From a virus (lineage: Duplodnaviria > Heunggongvirae > Uroviricota > Caudoviricetes): DNA of 64,000 nucleotides. The translations under genes and the position numbers were made by a program. The notes under the pieces were generated by a model, which was given only the letters and a program-made list of their open reading frames with translations, was not told the origin of the DNA and did no database searches. Location of the stretch: the IMG/VR virus record IMGVR_UViG_3300034102_002845; one strand, 5' to 3'. Below, piece after piece: positions 5,237-56,218 of this stretch (within the stretch, counting starts at the first letter, position 1; each line of letters begins with the position of its first letter).

Positions 5237-5557
5237 ATGGAAAACACCCCGCTGAAAGCTTTCAGAAACTACCTTGCCGGAGCAAACCCAATGACACCCC
5301 TTAGAGACAGAATTAACGCACTGACCAAGCAAAACCTCCAACAACTAATCGAAGACTACGAGCAGTTTGAGAGAGACGGGGCGATTGGAGACTGCTACCT
5401 TCGTTCAACTGCGAAAGAATTTGCAGAGTCTCTCGGGATACAGGTATCCGGCGTGTTGTGGATGAATAGGATCGCCTTCGAGGCATATCGTGAGCTTTTC
5501 TATCGAGTACTGCAGGACTTACCGTACGAGTGCAGCGGAAGTGGGTATACGGTCTAG
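5237..5557 (+). CDS. hypothetical protein
   Basis: ORF begins 7 nt after the cassette -10 box (5225-5230). The N-terminus MENTP is echoed at 35980 and 46357. Confidence 0.35.
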   Translation: MENTPLKAFRNYLAGANPMTPLRDRINALTKQNLQQLIEDYEQFERDGAIGDCYLRSTAKEFAESLGIQVSGVLWMNRIAFEAYRELFYRVLQDLPYECSGSGYTV

Positions 5558-5640
5558 TTTCACCCCCCGTACGCGGCGGGAAACCGTCCTTTACCCTCGC
5601 ACCCAAACAAGCTATAGTAAGCTCACACCGTAAAACAACA

Positions 5641-6582
5641 ATGCACGTGACCAAAACTAAAGAGTATCAGAAAACAGAGCCGATCGAGGTTTACTTGAAT
5701 CGTGACGGTCAAAACCTGTACAAGATTTCAAAGACCTCCTTTACGTTTAGTGCCGGTGAAAGGCAGGTCCGGTTGCATGACACTCCCACGAGTTCGACGG
5801 ACATTATCGTAGACGCAGACATACACAGCGGAGAAAGTTTCGCCGAACTTCTTCTGACTCTGTCGGCCATCAAAGACCTTCCTGTGCTGCGAAGTCTACA
5901 ATTGAACATCCCGTACTTACCTTATAGCCGCCAAGACCGCCAGTGTGCTGAAGGGGAAGCGTTTTCGCTAAGAACTTTTGTAAAAGCTCTCGCACCCTAC
6001 CTTGACGGGGTAGGCGATAGGGTGTACACATGGGACGTGCACAGCCACGTTGCAAATGAGCTCTTTCGAACCGAAATCGGCTGCGAGTTCAACAACCTAC
6101 AACCCCAACTGTTTCTCCAGAAGTTCAAAGACCGGGGGGAAGAGTTTAGTGCTAAGACAATTGTGATTGCTCCGGACAAAGGTGCAGTCGAAAGAGCAAC
6201 CCTCGTTCAACAAGCACTGGGACTCCACTCTGTAGTGTACGCTACGAAAGTTCGCAACCCCGAAGACGGGCAAATCCTAAGGACGGAAGTTCCAGAAGAC
6301 GTCAGTTACAAGGGCAAAAACCTTCTGATTGTGGACGACATCTGCGACGGTGGTCGCACCTTTATCGAACTCGCCAAGGTTCTGCGTCAGTTCGATCCGT
6401 CTCGAATTGACCTCTATGTAACTCACGGAATTTTCTCCAAGGGTTTTAAAGTGTTTGGGGGCTTAATCGACAACTTTCACGTTGCTAACTTGCTCCCTTA
6501 TAAAAACTTTTACCAAGAGTTACCCTCGAGCTTGACCTACCTTCGCACCGAAAACTACCCCACCCCCCGCAACCAACCATGA
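5641..6582 (+). CDS. ribose-phosphate pyrophosphokinase (Prs)-like enzyme; candidate ADPR pyrophosphokinase (Adps-type)
   Basis: NIPYLPYSRQDR (Prs PYxxYxRQDR motif) and KNLLIVDDICDGGRTF (type I PRTase PRPP-binding loop). A TATAGT box lies at 5613-5618. The stop overlaps the start of the NAMPT-like gene. Confidence 0.65.
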   Translation: MHVTKTKEYQKTEPIEVYLNRDGQNLYKISKTSFTFSAGERQVRLHDTPTSSTDIIVDADIHSGESFAELLLTLSAIKDLPVLRSLQLNIPYLPYSRQDRQCAEGEAFSLRTFVKALAPYLDGVGDRVYTWDVHSHVANELFRTEIGCEFNNLQPQLFLQKFKDRGEEFSAKTIVIAPDKGAVERATLVQQALGLHSVVYATKVRNPEDGQILRTEVPEDVSYKGKNLLIVDDICDGGRTFIELAKVLRQFDPSRIDLYVTHGIFSKGFKVFGGLIDNFHVANLLPYKNFYQELPSSLTYLRTENYPTPRNQP

Positions 6583-8093
6583 AAATTTTTGCGCCCCACG
6601 CAACCGACTTTTACAAGACAGGACACCCTTCGCAAAACCCAGACGGCACCGAGGTAATCTACGCCAATATGACGGCAAGATCCGACAGGTTGGCGAACAT
6701 GCCCGCTGACTTCGATCACAAGATCGTCGTGGCGAACGTCCAAGGGACAATGAAGTGGATGCTTAGGGACCTTTGGAATGAGACCTTCTTCCAGCAACCC
6801 AAGGCCAAAGTGTTAGACAAGTACGAACGGCGAATGGACTCCTCGCTCGGAGAAGGTGTTGTCGGCACGGACCACATTGCTGAGCTTCACGACCTGGGCT
6901 ACATGCCGCTACACGTAAAGGCTCTGCCTGAGGGTAGCCGGGTTAACATTGGAGTGCCGTTTCTGACGGCGCAAAACACTCACAATGAGTTTAAGTGGCT
7001 GGCCCCGTGGCTAACCAACTATGTCGAAACAGCCAAGTCGTCGGAACTTTGGAAGGCCATCAATGTGGCAACCATCGCTTACGAGTTTCGCCGTCTTCTC
7101 GACCACTACGCTGAAGTCACAGGGAGTGACCCGCAGTTTGTTGACTTTCAGGGGCACGACTTCTCCGCTCGCGGAGTCGGAGGCATTCACGATGCCGCTG
7201 CGCACCAAATCGGCCACCTTTTTTCCTTCAAGGGCACGGACACAATCCTTTCCATTGACTACTTGGAAGATTACTACGAATGCGGTTCCGAGTTTATTGG
7301 GGGGAGTGTTCCCGCCACAGAACACAGTGTAACTTGCCTCGGAGGCCGGGAAAACGAAGTCGAGACAATTCGCCGGATTATCTCGAAAGTTTACCCCTCG
7401 GGGGTTATTAGTGTAGTCAGTGACACGTGGAATTACTGGGACACTCTCACAGTTACTGCTCCCAAACTGAAAGAAGATATTCTGAGCCGTAAGCCAAACG
7501 GGCTAGGGCTGGCCAAGGTCGTCTTCCGTCCCGACAGTGGTGACCCTGAGAAAATCATCTGCGGTGACGCTGACGCTGATCCAGGTAGCCGAGAGTACAA
7601 AGGCTCGCTTGAGCTTTTATGGGAGGTCTTCGGAGGAACGGTAAACGAGAAGGGTTTCAAGGTACTGAACCCTCGAGTTGGCTTAATTTACGGCGACTCG
7701 ATCACTCTTCCACGTGCCAGGGCCATCCTAGAGCACATGAGGCAGCTTGGGTGGGCGTCCGAAAACATTGTGTTTGGTATCGGTTCTTACACCTATCAAT
7801 ACCATACACGGGACACTTTCGGTATCGCATACAAAACGACCTGGGGGCAAATTAACGGTGTCGCCGTTGAAACTATGAAGGACCCTATTACAGACAGCGG
7901 CACGAAAAAGTCGGCGTTGGGTCTACTGCGAGTTGAAAGGGATGGGGAGAACTTTGTCCTTCATCAACAGCAGACTCGTGAGCAAGAGCAGCAAGGTGAG
8001 CTTCGCACCGTGTTCTTAAATAGCGTGGTCTACGGGGAGGACGTAAACTCACTGCCTAACATTCGTACTCGACTTCTCTACCCTGCGGCCTAG
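6579..8093 (+). CDS. nicotinamide phosphoribosyltransferase (NAMPT/NadV)-like enzyme; candidate Namat
   Basis: About 500 aa with FQGHDFSARGV and GTDTILSIDYLEDYY-type NAPRTase-family blocks. Translationally coupled to the upstream Prs-like gene (ATGA overlap). Confidence 0.65.
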   Translation: MKIFAPHATDFYKTGHPSQNPDGTEVIYANMTARSDRLANMPADFDHKIVVANVQGTMKWMLRDLWNETFFQQPKAKVLDKYERRMDSSLGEGVVGTDHIAELHDLGYMPLHVKALPEGSRVNIGVPFLTAQNTHNEFKWLAPWLTNYVETAKSSELWKAINVATIAYEFRRLLDHYAEVTGSDPQFVDFQGHDFSARGVGGIHDAAAHQIGHLFSFKGTDTILSIDYLEDYYECGSEFIGGSVPATEHSVTCLGGRENEVETIRRIISKVYPSGVISVVSDTWNYWDTLTVTAPKLKEDILSRKPNGLGLAKVVFRPDSGDPEKIICGDADADPGSREYKGSLELLWEVFGGTVNEKGFKVLNPRVGLIYGDSITLPRARAILEHMRQLGWASENIVFGIGSYTYQYHTRDTFGIAYKTTWGQINGVAVETMKDPITDSGTKKSALGLLRVERDGENFVLHQQQTREQEQQGELRTVFLNSVVYGEDVNSLPNIRTRLLYPAA

Positions 8094-8193: not shown

Positions 8194-8784
8194 ATGGACT
8201 ACAAGACAATCGCATACAAGAAAACCATTCTGGTTTTAAATGCCACGTACGAACCCTTGAACCAGACCTCGTGGCGAAGGGCTAGAGTGCTTGTATTGAA
8301 GGACAAGGCCCATGTCGTGTCCAGCCGCACCATTCGCCTAAAAACATACGTCAAGGTTCCTCAAGCCAAGATGGCAGCGGCGAAGCCATCTCGCACCTTG
8401 ATTCTAAAACGGGACAATCACACCTGCCAGTATTGCGAGTACTCCGGTCCGAAACTAACACTGGATCACGTTTTACCAAAGTCAAGAGGTGGTCAAGACA
8501 CGTGGCAGAACCTGGTTACCAGCTGCCTTGAGTGCAACAACTGCAAGGACAATCGCACTCCGGAAGAGTGGGCGGTTGCCCTGAAGAAGGTGTTTGCGAA
8601 GGAAACCACGAACGTTTCTTCGCTGCCTTTCAGCTGGGATAGCTTTCAGATTGGGATGATGGAAACCCGAGTTACTCGACGTGGTACCACTCTCGCCTCA
8701 AAGCCGAAGGCACCTTACAGCAAAATGTCCGTTACAATCAGCACGGCGGAAGTTGAAGAGTGGCGTGAGTACGTCTATGTCTGA
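8194..8784 (+). CDS. HNH endonuclease
   Basis: CQYCEYSGPKLTLDHVLPKSRGGQDTWQNLVTSCLECNNCK is a canonical HNH motif with a zinc-binding Cys pair. Confidence 0.8.
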   Translation: MDYKTIAYKKTILVLNATYEPLNQTSWRRARVLVLKDKAHVVSSRTIRLKTYVKVPQAKMAAAKPSRTLILKRDNHTCQYCEYSGPKLTLDHVLPKSRGGQDTWQNLVTSCLECNNCKDNRTPEEWAVALKKVFAKETTNVSSLPFSWDSFQIGMMETRVTRRGTTLASKPKAPYSKMSVTISTAEVEEWREYVYV

Positions 8785-10212: not shown

Positions 10213-10926
10213 CAACGGAAATCAGTCACCGTACACTCCACGAAAACCAGTTTTACCGACACCGCCAGTAGTGCGGTCAAATAAGTCTAGCCCTTACGAC
10301 GCAAGCGGGAGACCTAAAGCAGAATGACACCAAATTCTCTTCAAATCACAATAAAAACATTTAACTACTGGAAGAATTGGTGTTCAGTGCCTCAGGAAAC
10401 TACCTCTTGGGCCCTCGATTGTGACACTGAAGGTCTTTTCTGGCACGACGGCCACCACGCAACTTTCTGGTACCTGCTGAATGTTTCGTGGTATGCCATG
10501 AACGATAAGCTTTACGCTTACACCGGCTGCAAAGAACCTTTTGACGGGTTGCTTCGGGATTTTGACGAGTACTACTCTTGATTTCACCATGAACTTTCGA
10601 ACCGCATGGCTTCGCTTTTACTACCGAGTGAAAAACTCTTTTGATGTCTTAGAGCTTCCTAGCAATTATGATCACAGTGAGTCAGCCTTACCGCCACATG
10701 TTGACTGCCGGTTTATTCACATTAGTTCGAGTTATGGTGGGCTGGGGAACTTTCGGTGGGTAAACTCAAACCCTTCATCAGAGGGCTGTGTCAATACCTG
10801 GGGACGAATCATCTGGGCTGGACGATGGTCCCTGTTTGTTGTACCAGGTCGAATTCCCCGGTCCACGAGAAGCAAAAGACTCGAAGAGCTTCGGGCTCCG
10901 CGTTGGGGTGGTTAACCGTTTGCTCT

Positions 10927-10972
10927 GGGGCGGTTTACCCCCCTTGCCTTTCCGTAAGGAAAGCGGTATACT
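10927..10972 (+). promoter_or_regulatory. hairpin plus promoter cassette
   Basis: -35 ttgcct 10944-10949; spacer ttccgtaaggaaagcgg; -10 tatact 10967-10972; ATG 11001. Confidence 0.55.
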
Positions 10973-11000
10973 TAACTTGTGACCCCCAAAGACTCTTCAA

Positions 11001-11363
11001 ATGGCACAGAAACTTTTCAAAGTTGAGCGGTACGAATTTGACTTTGTGCTGGCCGAAGACGCAAAACAGGCCAGAGGCTTTGAGTTCGGGGACAGCGACC
11101 CGACAAAGACTGTTACCGAGATTACAGAGATGTCTCCCGAACAAGAGGGGTTTAACACGCGACCTGGACTCTTATGGAACCCGTGCGATGCTAGATCCCG
11201 CACTTGGGCTGTCGAAACCTGTGGCGAATGGCTCAAGCGTACCGAAGAGGGCCGTCTTCGTGAGAAAGAAGCAGAGCAACTTGTAGGACTTGCCTTGTCT
11301 AAGCTTTCCTCAGTGGAGAAAGCCGCAGTTTTGGACTGGGCGTCGAAACAACCTAAGGTCTGA
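11001..11363 (+). CDS. hypothetical protein
   Basis: ATG 29 nt after the cassette -10 box (10967-10972). Confidence 0.35.
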   Translation: MAQKLFKVERYEFDFVLAEDAKQARGFEFGDSDPTKTVTEITEMSPEQEGFNTRPGLLWNPCDARSRTWAVETCGEWLKRTEEGRLREKEAEQLVGLALSKLSSVEKAAVLDWASKQPKV

Positions 11364-12179
11364 CCTTTGCTCTGGTAACCTACTATAAGAAAGTGCCCAA
11401 CCCAACTAGCGAAACCTTCGACAAGATCCTGAGTTTCGACCCCTTAGATGCCGCCGAACGTTTAACCGGATCTTCCTACAAAGAGAGCCCAGGTACAGTG
11501 TCCCTTGGAATGGCAATGGCTCAGGAACACAATCCTCCAAAGTCCGAGCTCTGTCTGATGCCAACGACCGATTGAAGTGCAGAAGGCGATCCAAGGGCGG
11601 TTACCTTAAACCCACACAAAATTGTTCAACATAGCTAGAGAAACCTTCAACGAGACTCCAAGGTACACAGCCACCGAATGAAAACTCCTAACCCACCACA
11701 GAAGCCACGACTCGAACCCACTAAGAGACGACTTTCTCTTTGACGACGGAAACTTTTACCGCAGAGTAATTCCGAGAGGAGAGCGGGTAAGGACACCACC
11801 CGAATGGCTCAAGTCCACAGGTTATGTTATCCACGGGTATTACCCTGTAGCCAACCCAAACATAGTCAAAGATCTAGAAACAGCTTACCAACAGTGGGCA
11901 TCTCCCACTAATCCAGAGAGACAAACTTGCAAGCCTATGGCAACCCCTACGCTAGACCCGCAGCAGATTCAGCAACTCATTGAGGCTATTCAACAGCTTT
12001 CCGCAAAGCTCGATGCCCTTTCCGCCGTTGACCACACCGTGGACAAGATAACGGATAGTATTCTCACGTACAGTCTGCTTTTCCCTAAGATTTGACACTA
12101 TGGGCGCCGAGGACGGTTTCCACCCTTGTCTTTGCTCGGCAAAGACGGTATGATTACTTTAGTAGAGATACTCGAACCA

Positions 12180-12500
12180 ATGACAAACCTCCCTGAGAAC
12201 ATCACAATTAAAGAGACCTCTTATCTCGACCATGAGACCACTTTCTGTGGGAAGTTCAGCGACATTAAGAGAGCCCTTGACAAGCTCGAGAAAGAGGGTT
12301 GGGAGGGTATGGAACGCGAATCAAGAGGGTACGACGGTGCTGTTGAGTGCAATCTCTACAAGCACCGCCTAGAAACAGACGAAGAGCGGGACAAAAGGGT
12401 GAAGGCTCTTGGTCAAAAGGCGAAAAAAGAAGCTATTGCAAAGGAAGTGCGGCGGCAAAGGTATGAAACGTTAAGGAAGGAGTTTGGGGCGGACGACTAG
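12180..12500 (+). CDS. hypothetical protein (Lys/Glu-rich C-terminus)
   Basis: First ATG downstream of the -10 box (tatgat 12149-12154). The upstream part of the track ORF would begin inside the promoter. Confidence 0.3.
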   Translation: MTNLPENITIKETSYLDHETTFCGKFSDIKRALDKLEKEGWEGMERESRGYDGAVECNLYKHRLETDEERDKRVKALGQKAKKEAIAKEVRRQRYETLRKEFGADD

Positions 12501-13036
12501 TCGCCCCGCACCCTTGACCCCGCCTTAGTCACCCAGCCTATTAATCTCGTATGGACCCGAATCGCAACTCACTCGAAACCCTTCTCAAATTGCCAACTCA
12601 CAGGTTGCTAACATACTTTCGAGCAAACTTTTCCAGCTTCGCCTACGACGAAGACGAAGAGGGTTCCGCAACTAAGCGGTTTGAGCACCGAAAAGCCGCA
12701 ATCAAGGAAGAGCTGGCCCGTCGAGAGCATGTCCCCCGACCCAAGACCTGTAACTAGCCCGTTGCCCCACACCACCACCTTCACACTAGTGTAAAATGGC
12801 AAGAATCACCGAAGAGCAAGGTTTAAGATCAGCTCAAGATGTTTGGGTTATTGACTTGTATGAGTCTGAGCGAGAATGGGAAGCGAGTCCTGGTCCGAAT
12901 TCTTCACGACTTTTGTGGAGGCCAACGAGCGGTATACTACAGTGAACGCCGTAAACCCTGCGGATCATGTTCCCGACTACTACATCGTTGCATCGAAGCC
13001 TCGCAAGGCCATTCCGCGTCTAACTTGACTACCTTG

Positions 13037-13084
13037 AGGGGCGGTTTCCACCCCCTTGTTTCTGCGACGCAGAAACGGTATAAT
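13037..13084 (+). promoter_or_regulatory. hairpin plus promoter cassette
   Basis: -35 ttgttt 13056-13061; spacer ctgcgacgcagaaacgg (palindrome); -10 tataat 13079-13084; ATG 13112. Confidence 0.55.
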
Positions 13085-13111
13085 TGGTTCGTGACCAAAG
13101 CACCCCAACCC

Positions 13112-13735
13112 ATGAAGTCTCCCCCTGAATCAGTTACAGGACAACTTTTGCTGAAGCCAGGGGACAGTGTGTTTGTTCCTGGAAAAATACTTAAAAATTC
13201 TCCCGACGGTCGAACCTGGGGAACTGAAGTTCCTTACCTTCACTTTCGGAAGAGTCCAGTAAAAGACGGTCTCTACGTTGTGTCCGACATCTGGATGCAC
13301 CCAAAAGCAACGGACCCGAACGTTCCATCCTCCTACTGCTACACTCTGGTAAGAGTCCGTGATGATCGTACTTGGACAAAAGGGTGGAGAGTCAGACTCC
13401 GAACCTCCTTCACACCTGAAGACCTGTCCTCAACAAAACTGCCTTTCAACTGCGTCGACTGGGACAATCTCATTCGAGACGAAATAGTTGAGACCGCTGC
13501 GTACACCCCTGGCGAAAAGTTCGACATGGACGAGTTTAGAAAGGATCTCGGCCAAGTTCTTTACAAGCACAAGGTTACTCTGTCAGTAGACACGAAGTTC
13601 TCCGACTACTGGGACGATTACGGCACAGACCACCTTGTTGTACTCGTCAACGGAGAGATAAAAGGAGACCTCGGGACTAACTTTCCTAGAAGAAGATCCG
13701 AGCCGAGGTGGGACAACGGGGAACAAAACCGCTAA
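13112..13735 (+). CDS. hypothetical protein
   Basis: ATG 28 nt after the cassette -10 box (13079-13084). The track ORF 12839.. reads through the cassette, so the start is probably internal. Confidence 0.4.
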   Translation: MKSPPESVTGQLLLKPGDSVFVPGKILKNSPDGRTWGTEVPYLHFRKSPVKDGLYVVSDIWMHPKATDPNVPSSYCYTLVRVRDDRTWTKGWRVRLRTSFTPEDLSSTKLPFNCVDWDNLIRDEIVETAAYTPGEKFDMDEFRKDLGQVLYKHKVTLSVDTKFSDYWDDYGTDHLVVLVNGEIKGDLGTNFPRRRSEPRWDNGEQNR

Positions 13736-13736
13736 G

Positions 13737-13781
13737 AGCGGCTTCCCGCCATTGTTTCTGCTCTGCAGAAACGGTATCATT
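13737..13781 (+). promoter_or_regulatory. promoter cassette
   Basis: -35 ttgttt 13753-13758; spacer ctgctctgcagaaacgg; -10 tatcat 13776-13781; ATG 13811. Confidence 0.5.
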
Positions 13782-13810
13782 GCTTCATAGACACCCCATC
13801 GGACAAACTA

Positions 13811-14095
13811 ATGCAAATCTGGCAAACGTATTGCAGTTCAGACGATATCGAGGGTAGGGGCCCAATGGTTCCCAATCTCGTTTTCCTTCACCAGCCTCAC
13901 GCTGAAAGGTACATTGATGAGCAACCTGGAGTTATGGGGTTACTGGGCCGGAGAGGGGGCTGGGAGATTAAACCGGTTAACGTGATTGACTACGACATCG
14001 TTCAGGCGAAAGCCAGCAAGGAGAAAATTCGCCAGGAAGCTCTCAAGAAGCTCTCTCAAGAGGAGAAAGAAGCTCTTGGACTGACTTTCACCTAA
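13811..14095 (+). CDS. hypothetical protein
   Basis: Follows the cassette at 13737-13781. Confidence 0.3.
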   Translation: MQIWQTYCSSDDIEGRGPMVPNLVFLHQPHAERYIDEQPGVMGLLGRRGGWEIKPVNVIDYDIVQAKASKEKIRQEALKKLSQEEKEALGLTFT

Positions 14096-14145
14096 AGAGG
14101 AACGTTCACTCCCTTTCCCTCCTCGGCTGACCCCCATACTAAAAA

Positions 14146-15255
14146 ATGGAAATAAACCTGCGCCACTTTCTAATCGACTGGTTAAACTACCGTGTCGAGA
14201 CCGCTTTTGAAGCACTCGCTGAACACGACATTCGTGTTGCTCGCGACGAACGTTACCCTGCTCTCTACAACTTGAAGTACGGCAGTGTAATGGCGGACAA
14301 GGCACTGCCGATCGTTCGTGCCTGCCGTGGTGCCGTAGTCGAACTCGTTGACGATGGTACGGGCTCCCCGTACTTTCGGCTGGTTGCGTACGCCTTCGAT
14401 CGCTTTTTCAACGTTGGCGAGGGGTATGCCGCTGAGATTGATTGGTCCACTGCCCGTGTAGCTGAGAAGTATGACGGGTCTCTGATCAAGTTGTTTAGCT
14501 ATAAGGGGGATTGGGTAGTTTCAACCTCCGGTTCAGTCGCTGGTTCCTCGGAAGTAGGAACCACGGGTCGCTCCTTCTCCGAGTTGTTTTGGCACGTGTT
14601 TGACGAAGTTGGCTACGAGCGGGTGGACCTGGACCCTAATTTCGTGTATATCTATGAATTGTGCCACAAAGACAACAAAATTGTTGTAGACTACGAGACT
14701 CCCCTTTTACCTCTCTTAACTGTCCGTAGCGTAATAGATGACCTGAACGAAAAGGATCTCAAGTACTTTGAGAACCGATTCAATCTCGCTCAGACCTACG
14801 ACCTGCGCTCACATGAAGCTGTAACCCAGTTTGTAAACGACTCTTCTCGTGGTACCGCTGAAGGCGTAATTATTGTCGACGGAAACGGAAACCGCCAGAA
14901 AGACAAGTCCAACGTCTACTGTCAGTTGCACAGGGTTAAAGGAAACGGAGAACCGGATTTCTCCGAGCTTTTCCTGAACGACGACTTGGAAGAGTTTCTG
15001 CTTCACTTTCCCGAGTATCGTAGGGGTTTTGACGTTCACCTGCGTTCCATCGAAGTGATGGAGAGTGCGGTGAGCGAGAACATGAGGGCTCACAACCATC
15101 TTAACCAGAAGGATTTCGCTCAAGCCGTACTTGCCGAGTCAAAAGAACTTTCTGGAGCATGCTTTGCGATTCGATCCGGCAAAGTCGGATCCTTTGCAGA
15201 GTGGCTCGAAGGTTTAACCCCGAAAAAGCTCGACGTTTTGCTCGGAATTTCCTGA
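14146..15255 (+). CDS. RNA ligase, T4 Rnl1 (RnlA)-like
   Basis: Motif I EKYDGSL (compare T4 Rnl1 KEDGSL), then AEGVIIVDGNGNRQKDKSNVY (motif IV EGhh plus motif V lysines) about 150 aa downstream. Length 369 aa, similar to Rnl1. Confidence 0.6.
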   Translation: MEINLRHFLIDWLNYRVETAFEALAEHDIRVARDERYPALYNLKYGSVMADKALPIVRACRGAVVELVDDGTGSPYFRLVAYAFDRFFNVGEGYAAEIDWSTARVAEKYDGSLIKLFSYKGDWVVSTSGSVAGSSEVGTTGRSFSELFWHVFDEVGYERVDLDPNFVYIYELCHKDNKIVVDYETPLLPLLTVRSVIDDLNEKDLKYFENRFNLAQTYDLRSHEAVTQFVNDSSRGTAEGVIIVDGNGNRQKDKSNVYCQLHRVKGNGEPDFSELFLNDDLEEFLLHFPEYRRGFDVHLRSIEVMESAVSENMRAHNHLNQKDFAQAVLAESKELSGACFAIRSGKVGSFAEWLEGLTPKKLDVLLGIS

Positions 15256-19137: not shown

Positions 19138-19172
19138 TCTTTCGAGTTGTTAGGGTCGTGCAAAGTTTTAGG

Positions 19173-19236
19173 GGGGCAAACCGCCCTAAACGTTCTGTTT
19201 TCCGTCTTGTTTCTGCTCTGCAGAAACGGTATAGTT
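19173..19236 (+). promoter_or_regulatory. hairpin plus promoter cassette (upstream of tyrS)
   Basis: -35 ttgttt 19208-19213; spacer identical to the 13759-13775 copy; -10 tatagt 19231-19236; ATG 19255. Confidence 0.55.
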
Positions 19237-19254
19237 AGTTTAATCACCAAGCCT

Positions 19255-20418
19255 ATGTTCACATCTAAACCTCCTTCAAGCCTAACCCGTGGAATAATTG
19301 ACACTTTTCCCGCAATAGCAGACGATACTTTTTTCACGACCCAGAAGAGGATAAAACTTGGGTTCGACCCGACCTCAAACTTTTTGCATCTGGGGCATTC
19401 TGTACTTCTTCGTAAGCTACGGACTTTTCAGGACCAGGGCCACATTCCCGTTGTCATTATTGGTGACTTCACTGCAAGAATAGGGGACCCCACGGGAAAG
19501 TCCTCGGTAAGAAAGCAACTTTCAAAAGAAGAAGTAGATTCCAACATTGACAGCTTCATTACAGCAATATCACGCTTCGTAAACCTGGAAAAATGTGAGC
19601 TGGTTCTCAACTCTAGCCATTTAGAGTGCCTACACTTGTCAGACATTGTTAAACTTCAGTCCATAACAACTGTACAGCAAATGATTGCAAAGCAAGATTT
19701 TGCACACCGCATTGAGTTACAAACTCCGATTAGGCTACACGAGTTTATGTACCCTTTGCTCCAAGGGTACGACAGTTTTCATGTAGAGTCGGACGTAGAG
19801 CTCGGTGGCACTGACCAGAAATTCAATGTTGGCTTGGGTAGAGAGGTTCAAAAACATTTCGACTCACCGGTCCAGCAAGTTGGTATGCTAATGCCAATTC
19901 TACCGGGCACCGACGGAGTGCAAAAAATGAGCAAAAGTCTGAACAATGCCATTGGACTCGACGAACACCCACTTCAAATGTTCTCTAAACTTGAGAAGGT
20001 TCCGGACCAATTGGTTAACGATTACATTACACTCCTCACCGACTGCAACCTGGATCAGTTTCCGGAAAATCCTCGAGAAAGACAGAAGCGAATGGCCGTA
20101 GAAGTCGTCTCCACCTTCCATGGAAGGGAGAAAGCTCTGAAGGCACTGAAAGACTCCGAGGCCCTTGTTTTCTCACAGACAATTGAAGTTAACGTGCCGG
20201 AAGTTTCGACTAAGGGAGTGGATTTTCCCTGCCGTCTAGCTACCATCCTAAAAACACTCAATTTGGTAGAAAGCACAAGCGAGGCTCGACGTAAAATAAA
20301 GGCAGGCTCTGTAAAAGTTGACGGGGTTGGGGTTACTGACGAAAACCTGACCATTGAGTCTGTCTCGAAGGGTGTTATTGTTCAACTGTCGAAAAAAGAC
20401 TTTTTTAAGTTGGTGTGA
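19255..20418 (+). CDS. tyrS: tyrosyl-tRNA synthetase (class I aaRS with C-terminal S4-like domain)
   Basis: GFDPTSNFLHLGHSVLL (compare E. coli TyrRS GFDPTADSLHLGHLVPL), ELGGTDQKFN, KMSKS motif KMSKSLNNAI, and C-terminal S4-like SEARRKIKAGSVKVDGVGV. ATG 19 nt after the cassette -10 box. Confidence 0.75.
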   Translation: MFTSKPPSSLTRGIIDTFPAIADDTFFTTQKRIKLGFDPTSNFLHLGHSVLLRKLRTFQDQGHIPVVIIGDFTARIGDPTGKSSVRKQLSKEEVDSNIDSFITAISRFVNLEKCELVLNSSHLECLHLSDIVKLQSITTVQQMIAKQDFAHRIELQTPIRLHEFMYPLLQGYDSFHVESDVELGGTDQKFNVGLGREVQKHFDSPVQQVGMLMPILPGTDGVQKMSKSLNNAIGLDEHPLQMFSKLEKVPDQLVNDYITLLTDCNLDQFPENPRERQKRMAVEVVSTFHGREKALKALKDSEALVFSQTIEVNVPEVSTKGVDFPCRLATILKTLNLVESTSEARRKIKAGSVKVDGVGVTDENLTIESVSKGVIVQLSKKDFFKLV

Positions 20419-20811: not shown

Positions 20812-20857
20812 GGGGCGGTTTACCCCCCTTACCTTTCCGACAGGAAAGCGGTATAGT
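20812..20857 (+). promoter_or_regulatory. hairpin plus promoter cassette
   Basis: -35 ttacct 20829-20834; spacer ttccgacaggaaagcgg; -10 tatagt 20852-20857; leader shared with the 23973 and 24286 copies. Confidence 0.55.
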
Positions 20858-21023
20858 TACTTCAGTCCACTTGAGCAACCATGTTCCCCCTGAACGACCT
20901 TTCCGCACTTCACAGCATCTTCTTCACGTTGCTTGGCCTGATTTCATTGGTTCTTGTCCTCAATCGGCCCCAAACCCGAGCCTGACTCCCTCCACAAATT
21001 CTCCCGTCTCATTACCAAACAAA

Positions 21024-23935: not shown

Positions 23936-23978
23936 GGCGGTTCACCCCCTTGCCTTCCCGGCAGGAAAGCGATATAGT
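23936..23978 (+). promoter_or_regulatory. hairpin plus promoter cassette
   Basis: -35 ttgcct 23950-23955; -10 tatagt 23973-23978; ATG 24002. Confidence 0.55.
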
Positions 23979-24001
23979 TACTTCAGTCCACGCACGCAAC
24001 C

Positions 24002-24220
24002 ATGACCTTCGACCCTCAAGCAGAAGCACGCTCAATGCTGCTTTGTTGGGAAAAGTACTACGTTATTCCACCTAACACTAAAACACTTCGAGATTGCGCT
24101 GAGCATGGCGCTACACACTGCGCCTACGGCTGGCCAAAGTTTCCGGACCCCAGATGGAACAGTGAGCAGATCGAAGCGTATCTTGCTGCCTACTGCTCTG
24201 CCCCGCATAGTCCGTGCTGA
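24002..24220 (+). CDS. hypothetical small protein
   Basis: Follows the cassette at 23936-23978. Shares a near-identical 5' leader with the genes at 20881 and 24317. Confidence 0.35.
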   Translation: MTFDPQAEARSMLLCWEKYYVIPPNTKTLRDCAEHGATHCAYGWPKFPDPRWNSEQIEAYLAAYCSAPHSPC

Positions 24221-24245: not shown

Positions 24246-24291
24246 GGGGCGGTTTACCCCCCTTTCTTTCTCGAAGAGAAAGCGGTATAGT
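24246..24291 (+). promoter_or_regulatory. hairpin plus promoter cassette
   Basis: Spacer tctcgaagagaaagcgg (palindrome); -10 tatagt 24286-24291; ATG 24317. Confidence 0.5.
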
Positions 24292-24316
24292 TACTTCAGG
24301 CAACTCCGAAGCAACC

Positions 24317-24592
24317 ATGGCATTCCACCCCCAAGCAGAAGCCGATCTCGAAGCACTTTGGCTGGGGCTTCCCGAAGACGCCCGCAGGAAGGTTGAGAAG
24401 ATGCCCGCAGGTTTGCGAGACTCTTTTTTGCAGTTGACGCACTCCTATGCACTTTCCGCCTACGAACTTGGATCTCGGCGATCCAGGCAAGACTGCCACC
24501 GGGCTATTTTACTTGTGGCTGAGAAGGTGCATCCCGACAGCAACTTGGAAAGTTTTCTGGAGCCTGACTACGGAATGGTGCCCCGTGCGTAG
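24317..24592 (+). CDS. hypothetical small protein
   Basis: Follows the cassette at 24246-24291. Confidence 0.35.
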   Translation: MAFHPQAEADLEALWLGLPEDARRKVEKMPAGLRDSFLQLTHSYALSAYELGSRRSRQDCHRAILLVAEKVHPDSNLESFLEPDYGMVPRA

Positions 24593-26271: not shown

Positions 26272-27393
26272 ATGGCAAACATTGAACGCAAACTCGCCTC
26301 CGTCCGAAAAGTAACGGAGATCCGACCAATCCCAGACGCCGACGCAATTGAGTGCGCCATCGTGGGAGGTGGCTGGCCCGTTGTCGTGAAGAAGGGGGAG
26401 TTCCAAGCTGGTGATCTTGCAATCTATTTCGAGATTGACTCGTGGATTCCCCACGAACTTGCCCCGTTCTTGTCCAAAGGGAAGGAACCAAGGGAGTACA
26501 ATGGAGTGAAGGGGGAGAGGTTGAAAACCGTCCGGCTCCGTGGTCAAGTCTCCCAGGGTCTCCTACTTCGCTTCTCGGACATCTCTCCAAGCTTCTACGT
26601 TGTTTCGCTAGCTGAACCTTATGGGGGGAGGGGATCTCTCCGAGTTGATGAGTGTGTGTGGCAAGAAGGCGAAGACTTCACTCTAGAGTTTGGTATTCAA
26701 AAGTGGGAGGCCACGGTCCCCGCTTGCCTTGCGGGACAAGTTCGTGGAAACTTCCCGAGTTTTTTGGTTAAGAGTGACCAAGAGAGATGTCAAAATATCG
26801 TGAGAAAAATCTTCGAGGAGCACAAGGAGGAAACCTACGAAGTTTCTCTGAAGCTGGACGGGTCTTCCTGCACCATTTATGCCCGAGACGGGGACAGTGG
26901 CGTGTGTAGTCGCAACCTAGACCTTAAGGAAACAGAAGGAAACAGCTTCTGGAAGGCTGCTCGAGAACAAGGTGTAATTGACGCCTTGCTGACCTATAAT
27001 AAGGAAACCGGTCGCAACATTGCTCTTCAGATGGAGCTGTGCGGTGAAGGGATTCAAGAAAACCAAGAAGGAATCAAAGGACAACGGCTTTTTCTTTTTG
27101 ACGTCTTCGACATCGACACTCAGACCTACATGAAGCCGGGGCAGCGACTTGTTTTCCTTGACGAGGTTTTGACTGAGCTTGGGGCCAAGTTGGAACACAC
27201 TCCCATTATTGACCTTCGAACTTACGTTGCCGGACGATTCGCCAACCTTGACGAGCTACTTGCTTATGCAGATGGTCCGTCTATGAACCCAAAAGTCAAG
27301 CGTGAAGGTGTGGTGTTCAAATCGTACGACTCCGCGTTCTCCTTCAAGGCCATTAGCAACGAGTGGTTGCTGTGGAAAGGGAAGAAAGGGTGA
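26272..27393 (+). CDS. RNA ligase, DraRnl/Rnl5-type (N-terminal OB-like domain plus nucleotidyltransferase)
   Basis: N-terminus VRKVTEIRPIPDADAIECAIVGGGWPVVVKKGEFQAGDLAIYFEIDSWIP. Motif I EVSLKLDGSSCTIY, motif III LQMELCGEGI, motif IV KREGVVFKS, and C-terminal lysines. Confidence 0.6.
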   Translation: MANIERKLASVRKVTEIRPIPDADAIECAIVGGGWPVVVKKGEFQAGDLAIYFEIDSWIPHELAPFLSKGKEPREYNGVKGERLKTVRLRGQVSQGLLLRFSDISPSFYVVSLAEPYGGRGSLRVDECVWQEGEDFTLEFGIQKWEATVPACLAGQVRGNFPSFLVKSDQERCQNIVRKIFEEHKEETYEVSLKLDGSSCTIYARDGDSGVCSRNLDLKETEGNSFWKAAREQGVIDALLTYNKETGRNIALQMELCGEGIQENQEGIKGQRLFLFDVFDIDTQTYMKPGQRLVFLDEVLTELGAKLEHTPIIDLRTYVAGRFANLDELLAYADGPSMNPKVKREGVVFKSYDSAFSFKAISNEWLLWKGKKG

Positions 27394-28895: not shown

Positions 28896-29405
28896 ATGAG
28901 TACACTTTATAGGGCCAACGGAGACCTGTTAGTGCTGGCTCGCAAGGGTCAGTTTGACATAATTGTCCACGGCGCTAATTGTTTTAATAAGATGGCTTCA
29001 GGCATCGCGGGGCAAATTAGCCGTGAGCACCCTGAAGCAGCGAACGTTGACCTTTCCACTCGGGCAGGGGACCGGGGCAAACTCGGTCGTTTTACCCTGG
29101 CACAGGTTCAAGGGAGCGGTAACCATACTTTCTACATTGTCAACGCATATACTCAGTACTCTTACGGAAGGGGCAAAGACATTTTCGAGTATGACTTTTT
29201 CCGAGACTTTCTCAAAAGTTTTCAAACTTTTTTGAGGAGCGGCGCCATGGCTGCGCCACTGGACGGGAAGTTTGCGGTAGGATTCCCATACATTGGGTGC
29301 GGTCTCGCTGGCGGTAACGAAGACACGATAGTAAAAATGCTTGAAAGTTTCTCCCTATCCTGCCACGATATTGCGGAAGTCACTCTCGTACGGTACGTGC
29401 GATGA
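28896..29405 (+). CDS. macro domain (ADP-ribose-binding/processing) protein
   Basis: FDIIVHGANCFNKMASGIAGQI ... FYIVNAYTQ ... FPYIGCGLAGGN, consistent with the MacroD/YmdB fold pattern. Confidence 0.55.
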   Translation: MSTLYRANGDLLVLARKGQFDIIVHGANCFNKMASGIAGQISREHPEAANVDLSTRAGDRGKLGRFTLAQVQGSGNHTFYIVNAYTQYSYGRGKDIFEYDFFRDFLKSFQTFLRSGAMAAPLDGKFAVGFPYIGCGLAGGNEDTIVKMLESFSLSCHDIAEVTLVRYVR

Positions 29406-33745: not shown

Positions 33746-35287
33746 TTGGACGGGAGCAAAGTTGATACAGCTTTAATTTGTATCCAAACAAACAATCAAC
33801 TTGAGAAAATGACAACCTTTTTAAACGCACTCGAAAACGAGTTTAACCAAACTACCACTGCAAACGGTGCAAAGGCATACAAGTCCACCGAGTCTAAGTG
33901 CCTGGACCTTTTTGGAAAGATTGCAGCTTGCCGTGACAACATCAGCGAAGCAACTCGCCTATTCAATCTTGCTTATGCCGTCGCCCCTGAGACCGCAACT
34001 CGAATCTTATTTTGGGCACGCGACATTCGTGGGGGCCAGGGAGAGCGAAAGATCTTTCGAGAAGTTTTTAAGGAACTCGTCCGCAATGACACCGCTGTCG
34101 GTGAGAAACTCGTCGGGCTAATTCCACAGTACGGGCGCTGGGACGACCTTGTTGCACTCGAAGGAACTTCCGTGTGGAACGTTGCACTCGAAGTGATTAA
34201 AGAACAGCTTAACGCCGATCTAAACACGGAAATTGGAAAGTCCGTTTCACTTCTGGCAAAGTGGCTGCCTTCCATTAACGCATCGAGCCAAGAATCCAAG
34301 CGAGTTGGCCGCCTTATCGCCAAGGAAATGGGTTGGACCGAGAGGCAGTACCGCAAGGCTCTGACTGCCCTCAGGTCACAAGTCAAGATTGTTGAGCAGC
34401 CAATGTGTGCCCGTGAGTGGGAAAGCATTGACTACGGTGTGTTGCCCTCTCGCGCAGGGTTTATGTACCGCAAAGCCTTTGCAAAGCGCGACGGCAACCG
34501 TTACCAATCCTACCTTGACTCGGTAGAGAAAGGTGAGGCAAAAATCAATGCCGGTACGATCTACCCTTACGAAATCGTGCACAAGTACCTTTACGGGGGT
34601 GAAAAGAGCGATCAGACTCTAAACTTAATGTGGGAGGCTCTACCCAACTACATGGAGGGAGAGCAGCTAAACGGCCTTGTAGTTGCTGATGTCTCGGGGT
34701 CTATGGGCCAGAACGGCGGCATGCCCATGGCGGTTTCAATCTCGCTGGCGATGTACATCGCTGAGCGTAACACCGGGGCATGGAAGGATAAGTTCCTAAC
34801 CTTCTCAGGAAGCCCGAAGCTGCAGTCTGTCACCGGGAGAAACATTGCTGAGCGTGTTAATAACCTTAGTCGAGCCAAGTGGGACATGAATACAGACCTG
34901 CAAGCAGTCTTCGATCTTGTGTTGGCTACCGCAACGAGGAACCATATTCCTGAAGGGGAAATGCCTCGCAAGCTCATCATTGTCTCAGACATGCAGTTTG
35001 ATTCCTGCTGCAGAAACAACTCAGTGACAAACTTTGAGGCGGTGCGAATCAAGTATGCTCAAGCAGGGTATTCCTTGCCGGAACTTGTCTTCTGGAATGT
35101 TAGCTCTAGCGGCAACGTACCTATGAAAATGCATGACACGGGAACTTGCCTGGTCTCCGGGTGCAGCCCTTCAATCCTGAAAGCTGTGCTTACTGGCGGG
35201 GTAATTACGCCTGTAGGGGTTATGCGTGACGCTGTTTACACTGAAAGGTACGACGCTGTCGGTGCCGTATTTGCTGAAGGAGCATGA
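33746..35287 (+). CDS. von Willebrand factor A (vWA) domain protein with large N-terminal helical domain (possibly TROVE/DUF2828-like)
   Basis: MIDAS motif LVVADVSGSMG at residue ~310, downstream T/D ligands (KLIIVSDMQFD). The first 300 aa are helical. An alternative start is at 33809. Confidence 0.55.
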   Translation: MDGSKVDTALICIQTNNQLEKMTTFLNALENEFNQTTTANGAKAYKSTESKCLDLFGKIAACRDNISEATRLFNLAYAVAPETATRILFWARDIRGGQGERKIFREVFKELVRNDTAVGEKLVGLIPQYGRWDDLVALEGTSVWNVALEVIKEQLNADLNTEIGKSVSLLAKWLPSINASSQESKRVGRLIAKEMGWTERQYRKALTALRSQVKIVEQPMCAREWESIDYGVLPSRAGFMYRKAFAKRDGNRYQSYLDSVEKGEAKINAGTIYPYEIVHKYLYGGEKSDQTLNLMWEALPNYMEGEQLNGLVVADVSGSMGQNGGMPMAVSISLAMYIAERNTGAWKDKFLTFSGSPKLQSVTGRNIAERVNNLSRAKWDMNTDLQAVFDLVLATATRNHIPEGEMPRKLIIVSDMQFDSCCRNNSVTNFEAVRIKYAQAGYSLPELVFWNVSSSGNVPMKMHDTGTCLVSGCSPSILKAVLTGGVITPVGVMRDAVYTERYDAVGAVFAEGA

Positions 35288-40602: not shown

Positions 40603-40674
40603 AGTCATGAAAGCCCTGGTAGCTCAGTGGAAGAGCACTGTCCTTCTAAGACACCGGTCGTGGGTTCGAATCCC
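40603..40674 (+). tRNA. tRNA-Arg (anticodon TCT)
   Basis: Acceptor GCCCTGG/TCAGGGC, D-arm GCTC-AGTGGAA-GAGC, anticodon loop CTTCTAA (U33, TCT, A37), T-arm with GGTTCGAATCC, discriminator G. Folded manually. Confidence 0.75.
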
Positions 40675-40933
40675 TCTCAGGGCGTCGGCTGCCTTTGCAG
40701 CCACACTAAACAACAACAATACAAAATGGCAAATCTTTCAATAGTTGATCGTGCCGCACGAATTAGCAACAAAAGCCCCAGGGGAGCAAAGCTCCTTCTG
40801 AAGCTTAGCGAGGCGAGCACCAGCACTGAAGTTCAAAGTGCTCTTGACGAATTTGACTTGGCGTTCGGAGTTCAAACTCCCTCTGTCTGAGCTTTACCTT
40901 GGGTTCCACCCCACACGGTGGTTCCCCCTTCAT

Positions 40934-41022
40934 GGGCGCGTGGTGTACGGTGCACAGGGACCATTATAAAGTCCTCTCCGGCAGATTACCGGCTAGTTAG
41001 GGTTCGACTCCCTACGCGCCTA
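40934..41022 (+). tRNA. type II (long variable arm) tRNA with atypical 9-nt anticodon loop; identity unresolved
   Basis: Acceptor GGGCGCG/CGCGCCT (G-U), D-arm GTGT-ACGGT-GCAC, anticodon stem GGGAC/GTCCT enclosing CAUUAUAAA, variable hairpin CCGG-cagatta-CCGG, T-arm TAGGG-TTCGACT-CCCTA. Confidence 0.55.
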
Positions 41023-41112
41023 CTTAGTTTCAACTAGCCGAAAACTCGTTAAAGAACCCACACAAAGGCCATCTTCGGTGAACGACACAGGAGTGGCCCA
41101 CCACGGTGACAA

Positions 41113-41197
41113 GGAAGAGTGGCTGAGCGGCCGAAAGCAGCAGCTTCGAACACTGTAGAGGGTTAAACCTCCGGGGGTTCAAATCCCCCCTCTTCCG
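41113..41197 (+). tRNA. tRNA-Ser (anticodon CGA), type II
   Basis: Acceptor GGAAGAG/CTCTTCC, 3-bp D-stem with 11-nt loop (Ser-like), anticodon loop TTCGAAC (U33, CGA, A37), variable hairpin GAGG-gttaaa-CCTC, T-arm GGGGG-TTCAAAT-CCCCC, discriminator G. Confidence 0.75.
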
Positions 41198-43117: not shown

Positions 43118-43621
43118 GTGAAAACCGCTGTAACGTTCGGGAGGTTTAACATAGGCCACCCCGGCCATGTTGAGCTAGTTAAAAAGTTGCTCACCCTTGG
43201 TTCGACCGCTAAAGTTTATGTGTCCTTAGGGAGACAGAACAACGACTGGGACCTTCGAGTTTTACTTCTGCGGACGCTGTGCCGCCAAGCGAGCATTGAC
43301 CTGAGTAGGGTATCATTTCTAAAGGCCATCGATCCCTATGCGGGGTTGTCAGATGTTCTAAAAAGCAGGAAGCCAAGCGAAGTGGTTCTCGTTCTGGGGT
43401 CCGACCAAGCTTCACTCGGATTGCAGCTTTCGCACACCTTCGGAGTCTCTTTTCATGAGAACGAACGAAGTGGTTCGAGCACGGCGCTGAGAAAGGTTTT
43501 AGACCAAGGCAAAAACCCTGCACCTTTTCAGGGGAATAGGTACGCTTTAAAACTTGCAACACTCTTGAGAAACAATGAAAAGTTCCGAAAAGCTCAAAGA
43601 AAAGTTAAGGCGTCTGCTTAA
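43118..43621 (+). CDS. cytidylyltransferase-family nucleotidyltransferase (NMN/NaMN adenylyltransferase-like)
   Basis: N-terminal FGRFNIGHPGHVELV is the (H/T)xGH nucleotidyltransferase motif at the expected position. Confidence 0.45.
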   Translation: MKTAVTFGRFNIGHPGHVELVKKLLTLGSTAKVYVSLGRQNNDWDLRVLLLRTLCRQASIDLSRVSFLKAIDPYAGLSDVLKSRKPSEVVLVLGSDQASLGLQLSHTFGVSFHENERSGSSTALRKVLDQGKNPAPFQGNRYALKLATLLRNNEKFRKAQRKVKASA

Positions 43622-43871: not shown

Positions 43872-44333
43872 ATGGAAAACAACCTCGAAGCATACGTGAT
43901 GGTCGGTGCCCCCGGCTCCGGTAAGTCAACCCATGTATCCAAACTACTGGCTTTACACCCAGATGCCGTTGTAATTTCCGGCGATGAAATCCGCGCTGAG
44001 CTCTACGGGAACGCGGACATTCAAGGAAATTACGTAGAAATCCACGACCGCATGCTTGAGATTCTGGAGGAGAGTGTAGGTCGGACTATAGTTATGGATG
44101 GTACCCACTACAAGGCAGCTTACCGCAAGGAAGCAGTTGCTATGCTAAACTCGTACGGTTACTGCAAAATCACCGCTGTTGTCCTTGACAAGCCCCTCAC
44201 CGTTTGCCTGCGCCAGAATGCTTCTCGCGAGCGTAGGGTTCCGGAAGAAGTGATTGAGCGCATGCACGCCTCCTTACAAGCTTCCCTCAAGAATATCAAC
44301 GAACCCTTCCACCGTATTGACTTCATATACTGA
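43872..44333 (+). CDS. polynucleotide 5'-kinase (T4 Pnk kinase-domain-like P-loop kinase)
   Basis: MVGAPGSGKSTHVSKL (Walker A), ISGDEIR, MDGTHY, RQNASRERRVPEEVIERM parallels T4 Pnk IGCPGSGKST...NRDDYR...DTNL...RNSKRGTKAVPIDVLRSM. ATG 7 nt after the cassette. Confidence 0.6.
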   Translation: MENNLEAYVMVGAPGSGKSTHVSKLLALHPDAVVISGDEIRAELYGNADIQGNYVEIHDRMLEILEESVGRTIVMDGTHYKAAYRKEAVAMLNSYGYCKITAVVLDKPLTVCLRQNASRERRVPEEVIERMHASLQASLKNINEPFHRIDFIY

Positions 44334-50713: not shown

Positions 50714-50757
50714 GGGCGGTTTACCCCCTTTGTTCTGCCCCACCGAAACGGTATAGT
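50714..50757 (+). promoter_or_regulatory. hairpin plus promoter cassette
   Basis: -35 ttgttc 50730-50735; -10 tatagt 50752-50757; ATG 50782. Confidence 0.5.
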
Positions 50758-50781
50758 TAAAGAGTCAATTCGACAACGAAA

Positions 50782-56130: not shown

Positions 56131-56218
56131 CCACCAGATAACACAGTCGGAGATAAGAGGACGCAGCAGACGTCTACTCTTGACGCTCCAACAACAGTCA
56201 CATCAACTGCACTCAAAT

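Follow-up and report, generated by a model that had tools for sequence, protein, structure and literature searches.

A predicted NARP1-type Adps–Namat gene pair in an uncultured jumbo phage

A 64 kb stretch of Caudoviricetes DNA (virus record IMGVR_UViG_3300034102_002845; "the window" hereafter means this whole stretch) carries two overlapping genes, one resembling phosphoribosyl pyrophosphate (PRPP) synthetase (Prs) and one resembling nicotinamide phosphoribosyltransferase (Nampt, NadV). The locus raises the question of whether the two proteins make nicotinamide mononucleotide (NMN) through PRPP or rebuild nicotinamide adenine dinucleotide (NAD+) from ADP-ribose (ADPR). Phage Prs-like/Nampt-like pairs were described by Osterman et al. 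2024 as Adps, which converts ADPR and ATP to ADPR pyrophosphate (ADPR-PP), and Namat, which converts ADPR-PP and nicotinamide to NAD+. In the data of Osterman et al., Adps proteins make up a separate clade, and a Namat gene neighbours the Adps gene in 97% of cases. About 4% of sequenced phages carry this NAD+ reconstitution pathway, NARP1, and about one third of jumbo phages carry NadV-like genes. The sequence comparisons below indicated that the pair is very probably the NARP1 operon of an uncultured jumbo phage and a further example of a known counter-defence system.

The window had a GC content of 0.50, and 99 of its 115 open reading frames (ORFs) of at least 60 aa were on the + strand. Long stretches of it were 93–95% identical to a 277,244-bp metagenomic contig, and it was therefore taken to derive from the genome of an uncultured jumbo phage. 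The initial annotation of the window had described the two adjacent ORFs as matching the NARP1 architecture. Both ORFs and their ATGA overlap were present (Table 1), and the first ORF contained the two Prs-signature strings that had been named, PYLPYSRQDR and LLIVDDICDGGRTF. The N-terminus of the second protein aligned residue by residue with phi92 gp108 (MKIFAPHATDFYK and MNIFAPFATDWYK, respectively), which supported the start at 6579. A longer first ORF from GTG-5530 was less likely, as homologs of the lineage have about 305–316 aa and a -10-like TATAGT box precedes ATG 5641.

The 504-aa product of the second gene matched PF04095 (3.8e-34), PHROG 448 (5.9e-177), and NF006629 (498.8 bits). 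Its best solved relatives in the PDB were 9W5X and 9W5W, the SpβL1 Namat (439 bits); mammalian Nampts scored about 187 bits. According to a 2026 structural paper, Namat selects adenine by a clamp consisting of a selectivity clamp helix (SCH) and a selectivity clamp loop (SCL). The SCH motif is GS-X-Phi-X-Phi-X-Phi-TRD, whose third and seventh positions are aromatic, and the SCL is a variable loop giving an Arg, Lys, or Tyr stacker. The SCH was GSYTYQYHTRD in the window protein and GSFTYQYNTRD in SpβL1. In the HMMER alignment to 9W5X, F392, Y396, and T398-R399-D400 of SpβL1 corresponded to Tyr, Tyr, and T-R-D; the third Phi position was His, where Asn or Val is usual. The same columns read GGGLLQQLDRD in the KVP40-like ValKK3 enzyme and GGALLQKLTRD in mouse Nampt. 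Across 34 sequences, an aromatic-rich SCH was found in all proteins from NARP1-type loci, and GG[GA]LLQ in ValKK3, Roth27, Synechococcus phage B3, and mouse Nampt. For the SCL, the HMMER alignment placed R37 at the position of SpβL1 R40 (TARSDRLA and TPRTSRVE). The Nampt-family catalytic core was intact in the alignment to 9W5X, with HDFSARG, GTDT, ATEHS, RPDSGD, and YGDS.

The placement of the protein was consistent with these motifs. A neighbour-joining (NJ) tree of 34 sequences (488 columns, 200 bootstraps) joined it to every characterised Namat with 100% bootstrap support; the clade contained the enzymes of SpβL1, ICP1, AYO145A, ABurr, and a mycobacteriophage. The KVP40-like (NARP2-type) and mouse enzymes were outside this clade. 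Bas63 was represented by Felixounavirus AYO145A and Gary by ABurr; statements on Bas63-like or Gary-like enzymes therefore rest on these relatives. When the protein was searched by tblastn against 50,697 phage records, the scores were bimodal, at 300–577 and 125–180 bits. The high group comprised ICP1, Felix O1-like, phi92-like, Kayvirus, and mycobacteriophage records, and a Prs-like neighbour was present at every inspected locus of this group except that of DSS3_VP1 (258 bits). The low group consisted of T4-like phages, whose inspected loci had no Prs neighbour; in one of them, phage B3, an annotated NMNAT gene instead lay two genes upstream. At the DNA level, a search of the pair against phages returned just short stretches of 65–70% identity inside nadV genes and was uninformative. 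Based on its clamp and its clade, the 504-aa protein is predicted to be of the Namat type, forming NAD+ and pyrophosphate from ADPR-PP and nicotinamide.

One solved enzyme in the tree, PDB 9ke8/9keo, bears the name nicotinamide phosphoribosyltransferase. It was inside the Namat clade, where it grouped (91% bootstrap) beside the enzymes of SpβL1 and a Staphylococcus phage. Its SCH, GAQTYQRNTRD, had no aromatics at positions 3 and 7, and the enzyme could be an informative natural variant of the clamp.

The 313-aa product of the first gene matched Pribosyltran (6.8e-12) and Pribosyltran_N (7.5e-07) in Pfam, and PHROG 619 (2e-64). Compared with canonical PRPP synthetases (PRPS), Adps keeps the acceptor residues, has a remodelled pyrophosphate (PP) loop (ICP1 Cys215–Ser220), carries the catalytic Lys185 on a beta-hairpin, and is without the C-terminal alpha11–alpha12 module (PMC13586617). 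The PP loop of the window protein, residues 232–241, was DDICDGGRTF, and phi92 and the Felix O1-like phage have exactly this sequence. The loop is DDICDGAASF in ICP1 Adps, DDMIDTGGTL in E. coli Prs, and DDIISTGGT in archaeal class III PRPS. The Adps-type motif occurred in 25 of 27 aligned Prs-like proteins that were Namat-linked or belonged to the lineage. Residues F36, R97, H134, D179, K203, D232, D233, and D236 corresponded to F18, R87, H121, D161, K185, D212, D213, and D216 of ICP1. Seven of these (R97 to D236) are necessary and not discriminating, because canonical PRPS has them too; F36 corresponds to the adenine-contacting F18, and a Phe is also found there in E. coli Prs. The blocks THGIFSKG and K[VIK]R[DN]xxxGxI were common to Namat-linked proteins and different in canonical Prs.

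Family scores separated the protein from canonical Prs. Against TIGR01251 it scored 126.8 bits, and E. coli Prs scored 423, three to four times as high. Known or operon-linked Adps proteins run as controls (ICP1, phi92, the Felix O1-like phage, ABurr, and an Acinetobacter prs paralog) scored 98–134 bits. Against PRK01259 it scored 83.7 bits (cutoff 297) and E. coli Prs 532. It was far under every canonical Prs equivalog cutoff in NCBIfam, and the ribose-5-phosphate loop DDMIDTGGT was absent. In the NJ tree, bootstrap support was 83% for a clade of the Namat-linked Prs-like proteins, that of the window among them, and the E. coli and archaeal PRPS fell outside it. After the last conserved block, the protein had a Pro-rich tail (YPTPRNQP) of 27 residues, compared with 14–29 in Adps references and 39 in E. 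coli Prs, and its HMMER alignment to E. coli Prs ended at residue 289–290 of 315. The short tail was consistent with loss of the alpha11–alpha12 module, though near the long end of the Adps range. The best solved Prs matches in the PDB set searched, which did not include the ICP1 Adps structures, were archaeal class III PRPS (66 bits). The protein is predicted to be of the Adps type, converting ADPR and ATP to ADPR-PP and AMP.

The NARP1 architecture proposed in the initial annotation was therefore upheld by the SCH/SCL clamp, the PP loop and catalytic residues, the order and adjacency of the genes, and the clade placement. Neither protein clustered with housekeeping Prs or NadV in the NJ trees (100% clade for Namat and 83% for Adps). 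The window shared with the NARP1 systems of Bas63/JohannRWettstein, SpβL1, Fado, and ICP1 the same two families and their order, the SCH motif, the SCL Arg, the PP-loop type, the catalytic Lys/Asp/His/Arg, and the clades. Adps was upstream of Namat in 7/7 phage reference loci having a Prs-like gene beside Namat. The window differed from the characterised systems in several respects. Identity to characterised NARP1 enzymes was about 33–39% for Adps and about 40–45% for Namat (tblastn; ICP1, Felix O1-like phage). The window Namat had a 4-residue insertion, KWLA, before WLTNY, besides the longer SCL considered below. Its genes overlapped by ATGA, whereas the others are spaced, and its genome is that of a jumbo phage.

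Both reactions, the preferred substrates, and a role against host defences were inferred by analogy with published homologs from Bas63, SpβL1, ICP1, Fado, DyoEdafos, and Paenibacillus. During infection, a host NADase with a TIR, SIR2, or SEFIR domain (Thoeris, DSR1/2, SIR2-HerA) would split NAD+ into ADPR and nicotinamide. The Adps-like protein would then pyrophosphorylate ADPR at the 1'' hydroxyl of its distal ribose, with the beta,gamma-pyrophosphate coming from ATP, to give ADPR-PP. The Namat-like protein would exchange the pyrophosphate for nicotinamide and form NAD+ directly, which would blunt Thoeris, DSR, and SIR2-type defences.

The signals around the pair suggested joint expression. 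The window had no exact match to the pattern other than the promoter-like site upstream of the Adps-like gene (Table 1), and chance would give 0; this site may tentatively be read as a promoter. A related upstream signal, a GC hairpin followed by GCGGTATAGTTA about 20–25 nt before the ATG, preceded the genes at 19255, 24002, 24317, and 50782. A repeated intergenic element contained a GC-rich hairpin (GGGCGGTTTACCCCCC), a second short hairpin, and GCGGTATAGTTAC, followed after about 20–25 nt by CAACCATG. It is probably a phage terminator and promoter cassette, and a degenerate copy of it stands upstream of the Adps-like gene. No comparable promoter-like element was found between the Adps-like and Namat-like genes, and neither start (5641, 6579) had a Shine-Dalgarno (SD)-like motif upstream. 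We infer from this layout that the pair forms one transcription unit with coupled translation, the coupling because the genes overlap by ATGA.

Table 1. Positions in the window of the gene pair, nearby signals, and unlinked candidate genes
Feature	Position	Strand	Description
Adps-like gene	5641..6582	+	ATG start, 313 aa; predicted ADP-ribose pyrophosphokinase, PRPP-synthetase fold
Namat-like gene	6579..8093	+	ATG start, 504 aa; predicted nicotinamide ADP-ribose transferase
ATGA start/stop overlap	6579..6582	+	read from sequence: ATG 6579-6581, TGA 6580-6582
Promoter-like site TTTACC-N17-TATAGT	5590..5618	+	consensus scan; TATAGT box 22 nt before ATG 5641
Repeated intergenic element copies	~10910-10974, 20813-20880, 23936-24002, 24250-24317, 50715-50782		hairpins and promoter-like motif
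Poa1p/OARD1-type macrodomain, unlinked	28896..29405	+	169 aa; candidate ADPR-1''-phosphate phosphatase (Adpp-like)
HxGH (HIGH-motif) nucleotidyltransferase	43118..43621	+	167 aa; possible NMNAT, possible accessory

Several observations weigh against the assignment of the pair to NARP1. The SCL of the window protein was 4 residues longer than that of SpβL1, within a variable region, and the equivalence of R37 and R40 therefore hinges on the alignment. The adenine-contacting F92 of ICP1 Adps was replaced by Cys102. Phi92 and Acinetobacter likewise have Cys at this position and the Felix O1-like phage has Met; F92 is therefore no family-wide feature of Adps. The 27-residue tail was near the upper limit of the Adps range. 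The trees were NJ trees of small samples, and the internal nodes of the Adps tree were poorly supported. In addition, the closest named homologs of the Namat-like protein (about 60% identity) were chromosomal "NadV" proteins of Acinetobacter and Vibrio, historically read as PRPP-dependent.

The chromosomal relatives were themselves of the NARP1 type in sequence. The Acinetobacter and Vibrio NadV proteins nested in the Namat clade of the NJ tree and carried GSFTYNYLTRD, and the prs paralog upstream of their genes had the Adps-like loop DDICDGGATF. Because these proteins sit in the Namat clade, have NARP1 motifs, and adjoin an Adps-like prs, kinship with them does not refute the NARP1 assignment. 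Rodionov et al. 2008 described the prs-nadV-nrtR arrangement, left the dedicated prs paralog unexplained, and found that the NrtR of Shewanella leaves its operator in response to ADPR. In Paenibacillus, a chromosomal NARP1 was later found to be active, and prs-nadV(-nrtR) operons are now taken as bacterial NARP1 (PMC12774641). The comparison suggests that the classic prs-nadV-nrtR operon of gammaproteobacteria is a NARP1 induced by ADPR. The window shared the two-gene order and the NARP1 motifs with the chromosomal operons of Acinetobacter, Shewanella, and Vibrio. Those operons are under the ADPR-sensing NrtR, whereas the window pair is in a phage genome and has no nrtR neighbour; the Prs-like protein was just 37% identical to theirs and the NadV-like protein 60%.

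One record in this comparison was mislabelled. The top "phage" match for the Namat-like protein, Acinetobacter phage MD-2021a (CAKLQF020000015.1), was really an Acinetobacter chromosome contig with transporters and AraC regulators. At 11099–14316 it held a prs-nadV pair carrying both NARP1 motifs. The third gene there, annotated as "bifunctional NMNAT/ADP-ribose pyrophosphatase", was considered as NadM and rejected; it had no HxGH domain and fitted NrtR.

A classical salvage route similar to NARP2 would use the same genes differently. The first protein would be a PRPP synthetase, the second an NMN-making nicotinamide phosphoribosyltransferase, and the HxGH nucleotidyltransferase at 43118–43621 would be the NMNAT that completes NAD+. 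Like the NARP2 of KVP40 (Nampt and Nmnat), the window has a Nampt-superfamily enzyme and possibly an adenylyltransferase. KVP40-type Nampts form a separate clade, are linked to Nmnat, and prefer PRPP, and no phage was found with both pathways (Osterman et al.). The only Nampt-family gene detected in the window by tblastn was in the Namat clade, not the KVP40-type clade; it carries the ADPR-PP clamp where KVP40-type enzymes read GGGLLQ, and a Prs-like gene adjoins it. That Prs-like protein is without the DDMIDTGGT loop and below all Prs equivalog cutoffs. The initial annotation had seen NMNAT and "NARP2-like logic" in the nucleotidyltransferase. The HxGH nucleotidyltransferase itself was confirmed, and it is a possible NMNAT; PPAT and NadD matched it almost equally, and its sequence did not match true NMNATs significantly (E = 0.29). 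The gene lies 35 kb from the pair, and its neighbours, kept in relatives, were a Pnkp-like kinase, a metallophosphatase, and an exonuclease, genes of RNA end healing. The salvage route was considered highly improbable.

It is also conceivable that a NARP1-type pair is mainly metabolic, recycling ADPR from the phage's own ADP-ribosylation and de-ribosylation or sustaining NAD+-dependent phage enzymes, in parallel with the NrtR-regulated prs-nadV operons. The window does encode the C-terminus of an ADP-ribosylglycohydrolase (1–306; PF03747 1.2e-21) and a macrodomain (28896–29405), both named in the initial annotation and both confirmed, the latter by profile methods only. The nearest named relatives of the pair are chromosomal operons, in Shewanella with a repressor released by ADPR, and housekeeping roles of bacterial NARP1 have been proposed in published work. 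In all phages tested in published work, however, deletion or addition of NARP1 altered how sensitive the phage was to defences that deplete NAD+, and NAD+ was not produced in excess when no defence system was present. An ADP-ribosyltransferase could not be verified in the window either. The R-S-E ADP-ribosyltransferase that had been proposed at 765–1985 was not supported: the ORF had no match in Pfam (E <= 5), NCBIfam, or the PDB, and only PHROG "minor head protein" (2.3e-13) was returned. YRG and GSYS strings exist in it, with no ExE motif, and the ORF was left without an assignment. A mainly metabolic role was judged very unlikely, and counter-defence remained the preferred role of the NARP1 pair. 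A nucleoside 2-deoxyribosyltransferase-like protein (61058–61573), also listed among the NAD+/ADPR genes, was confirmed (Nuc_deoxyri_tr2, 8.7e-35), with the caveat that it has no demonstrated NAD+ link. A PADLOC scan of the NAD-related ORFs of the window gave trivial phosphoribosyltransferase-loop matches only.

The macrodomain was compared with the NARP1-AP system (Adps-Adpp-Namat) of Vibrio phage Gary (Osterman et al. 2026 preprint), whose operon embeds a homologous Poa1p-like macrodomain. The ORF matched PHROG 335 "phosphatase" (1.2e-37). It was 40% identical (1e-31) to Pseudomonas phage EM gp024 "Macro_Poa1p_like", whose gene is directly 3' of Namat, and 30% identical (8e-17) to ABurr gp179, whose gene lies between Adps and Namat. 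A single-sequence AlphaFold2 model was set aside (predicted local distance difference test score 36), and a four-sequence profile was used instead; in the PDB it matched BT1257 (8e-17), OARD1 (3e-14), and Poa1p 6lfu (4e-10). No Adpp gene was found within two genes of the pair, the flanks being the 106-aa ORF and an HNH endonuclease; in NARP1-AP it lies within that distance, and the macro gene of the window starts 20.8 kb downstream of the namat stop. Macro homologs were found in 2,736 phage records, many without NARP1, and for this reason a functional link between the macro family and NARP1 is unproven. The macrodomain could feed ADPR to the pathway. As a weaker proposal than the two main steps, it may form ADPR from the ADPR-1''-phosphate that aRES-type defence produces.

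A three-part toolkit dispersed over the genome and directed at three modes of NAD+ breakage was considered unlikely. It would combine Adps–Namat against canonical NADases, the macrodomain acting in trans against aRES-type defence, and the HxGH nucleotidyltransferase, if it is an NMNAT, acting on NMN and ATP. The NMN would come from Metis-type cleavage of NAD+ into AMP and NMN or from residual PRPP activity of Namat. If true, the toolkit would place NARP1 and an NMNAT branch in one genome, a combination absent from about 20,000 phage genomes (Osterman et al.).

Alone, a further NARP1 pair is of little weight, as NARP1 has been known since 2024. The published residue rules (SCH/SCL clamp and PP loop) sorted a divergent pair from an uncultured jumbo phage cleanly, and database names for such proteins are still Prs and Nampt. 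The assignment extends NARP1 to a lineage of large phages from freshwater metagenomes. Their Namat was sister to that of the chromosomal prs-nadV operons of gammaproteobacteria, a placement relevant to which way the genes passed between bacteria and phages. If macrodomains of the Adpp family act in trans, as they may, counts of operon neighbours (15% of NARP1 operons) may understate NARP1-AP.

The pair and the HNH gene after it were conserved in related phage contigs of 66–280 kb. In those of 66–189 kb, the order DPBB-domain gene, Prs-like, Namat-like, and HNH endonuclease was kept, with 70–79% nucleotide identity over the pair. The HNH endonuclease (window 8194–8784; PF01844 1.7e-13, PHROG 16726 5e-49) lies about 100 nt 3' of Namat and holds the same position in three relatives (L009, L012, and L013). 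On the other side, the upstream ORF at 5237–5557 (106 aa) was checked as a RyR-domain (RyDEP) or other accessory gene, and no match was found in the searches, which included Pfam, PHROG, and NCBIfam. The Namat of a relative (protein P0003; L009:10001–12448, also in L010 and L011) had 815 aa and was 85–87% identical to the window protein. It had an insertion of about 305 aa within the catalytic RPD/SGD motif (RPD-C...SGN-SGDPEKI) with intein-like boundaries. The intein-like insertion in this relative and the conserved downstream HNH gene suggest that the Namat gene is a target of homing elements.

Other genes of the window were recorded. The Pnkp-like kinase and the metallophosphatase directly 3' of the HxGH nucleotidyltransferase, an arrangement kept in relatives, belong to an RNA-repair set composed of a T4 Rnl1-like ligase (14146–15255), a second RNA ligase with a PHA02142 OB domain (26272–27393), a Pnkp-like polynucleotide kinase (43872–44330), and a metallophosphatase (44338–45045). 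The 406-aa ORF at 765–1985, beside the ADP-ribosylglycohydrolase fragment, has a coiled-coil-like middle and a C-terminal domain with YRG and GSGSYS. A TET/JBP-family 2-oxoglutarate-Fe dioxygenase (52530–54017, 1.2e-13) and a TET-associated glycosyltransferase (56180–57046, 2.4e-10) look like a DNA cytosine hypermodification module. A 513-aa protein (33746–35287) matched DUF2828 (1.3e-33) and DUF7788 (2.2e-51) and was kept in the 277-kb relative.

SD-like tetramers were rare in the window and stood upstream of 5 of 44 larger genes. Because they precede so few genes, the host or the phage appears to depend little on SD sequences, as would be the case in Bacteroidota or cyanobacteria, for instance. 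At 40613–41197 there were three tRNA genes (Arg-TCT, Ile-TAT, and Ser-CGA), and a tyrosyl-tRNA synthetase at 19147–20418 matched tRNA-synt_1b (3.2e-66) and carried an S4 domain.

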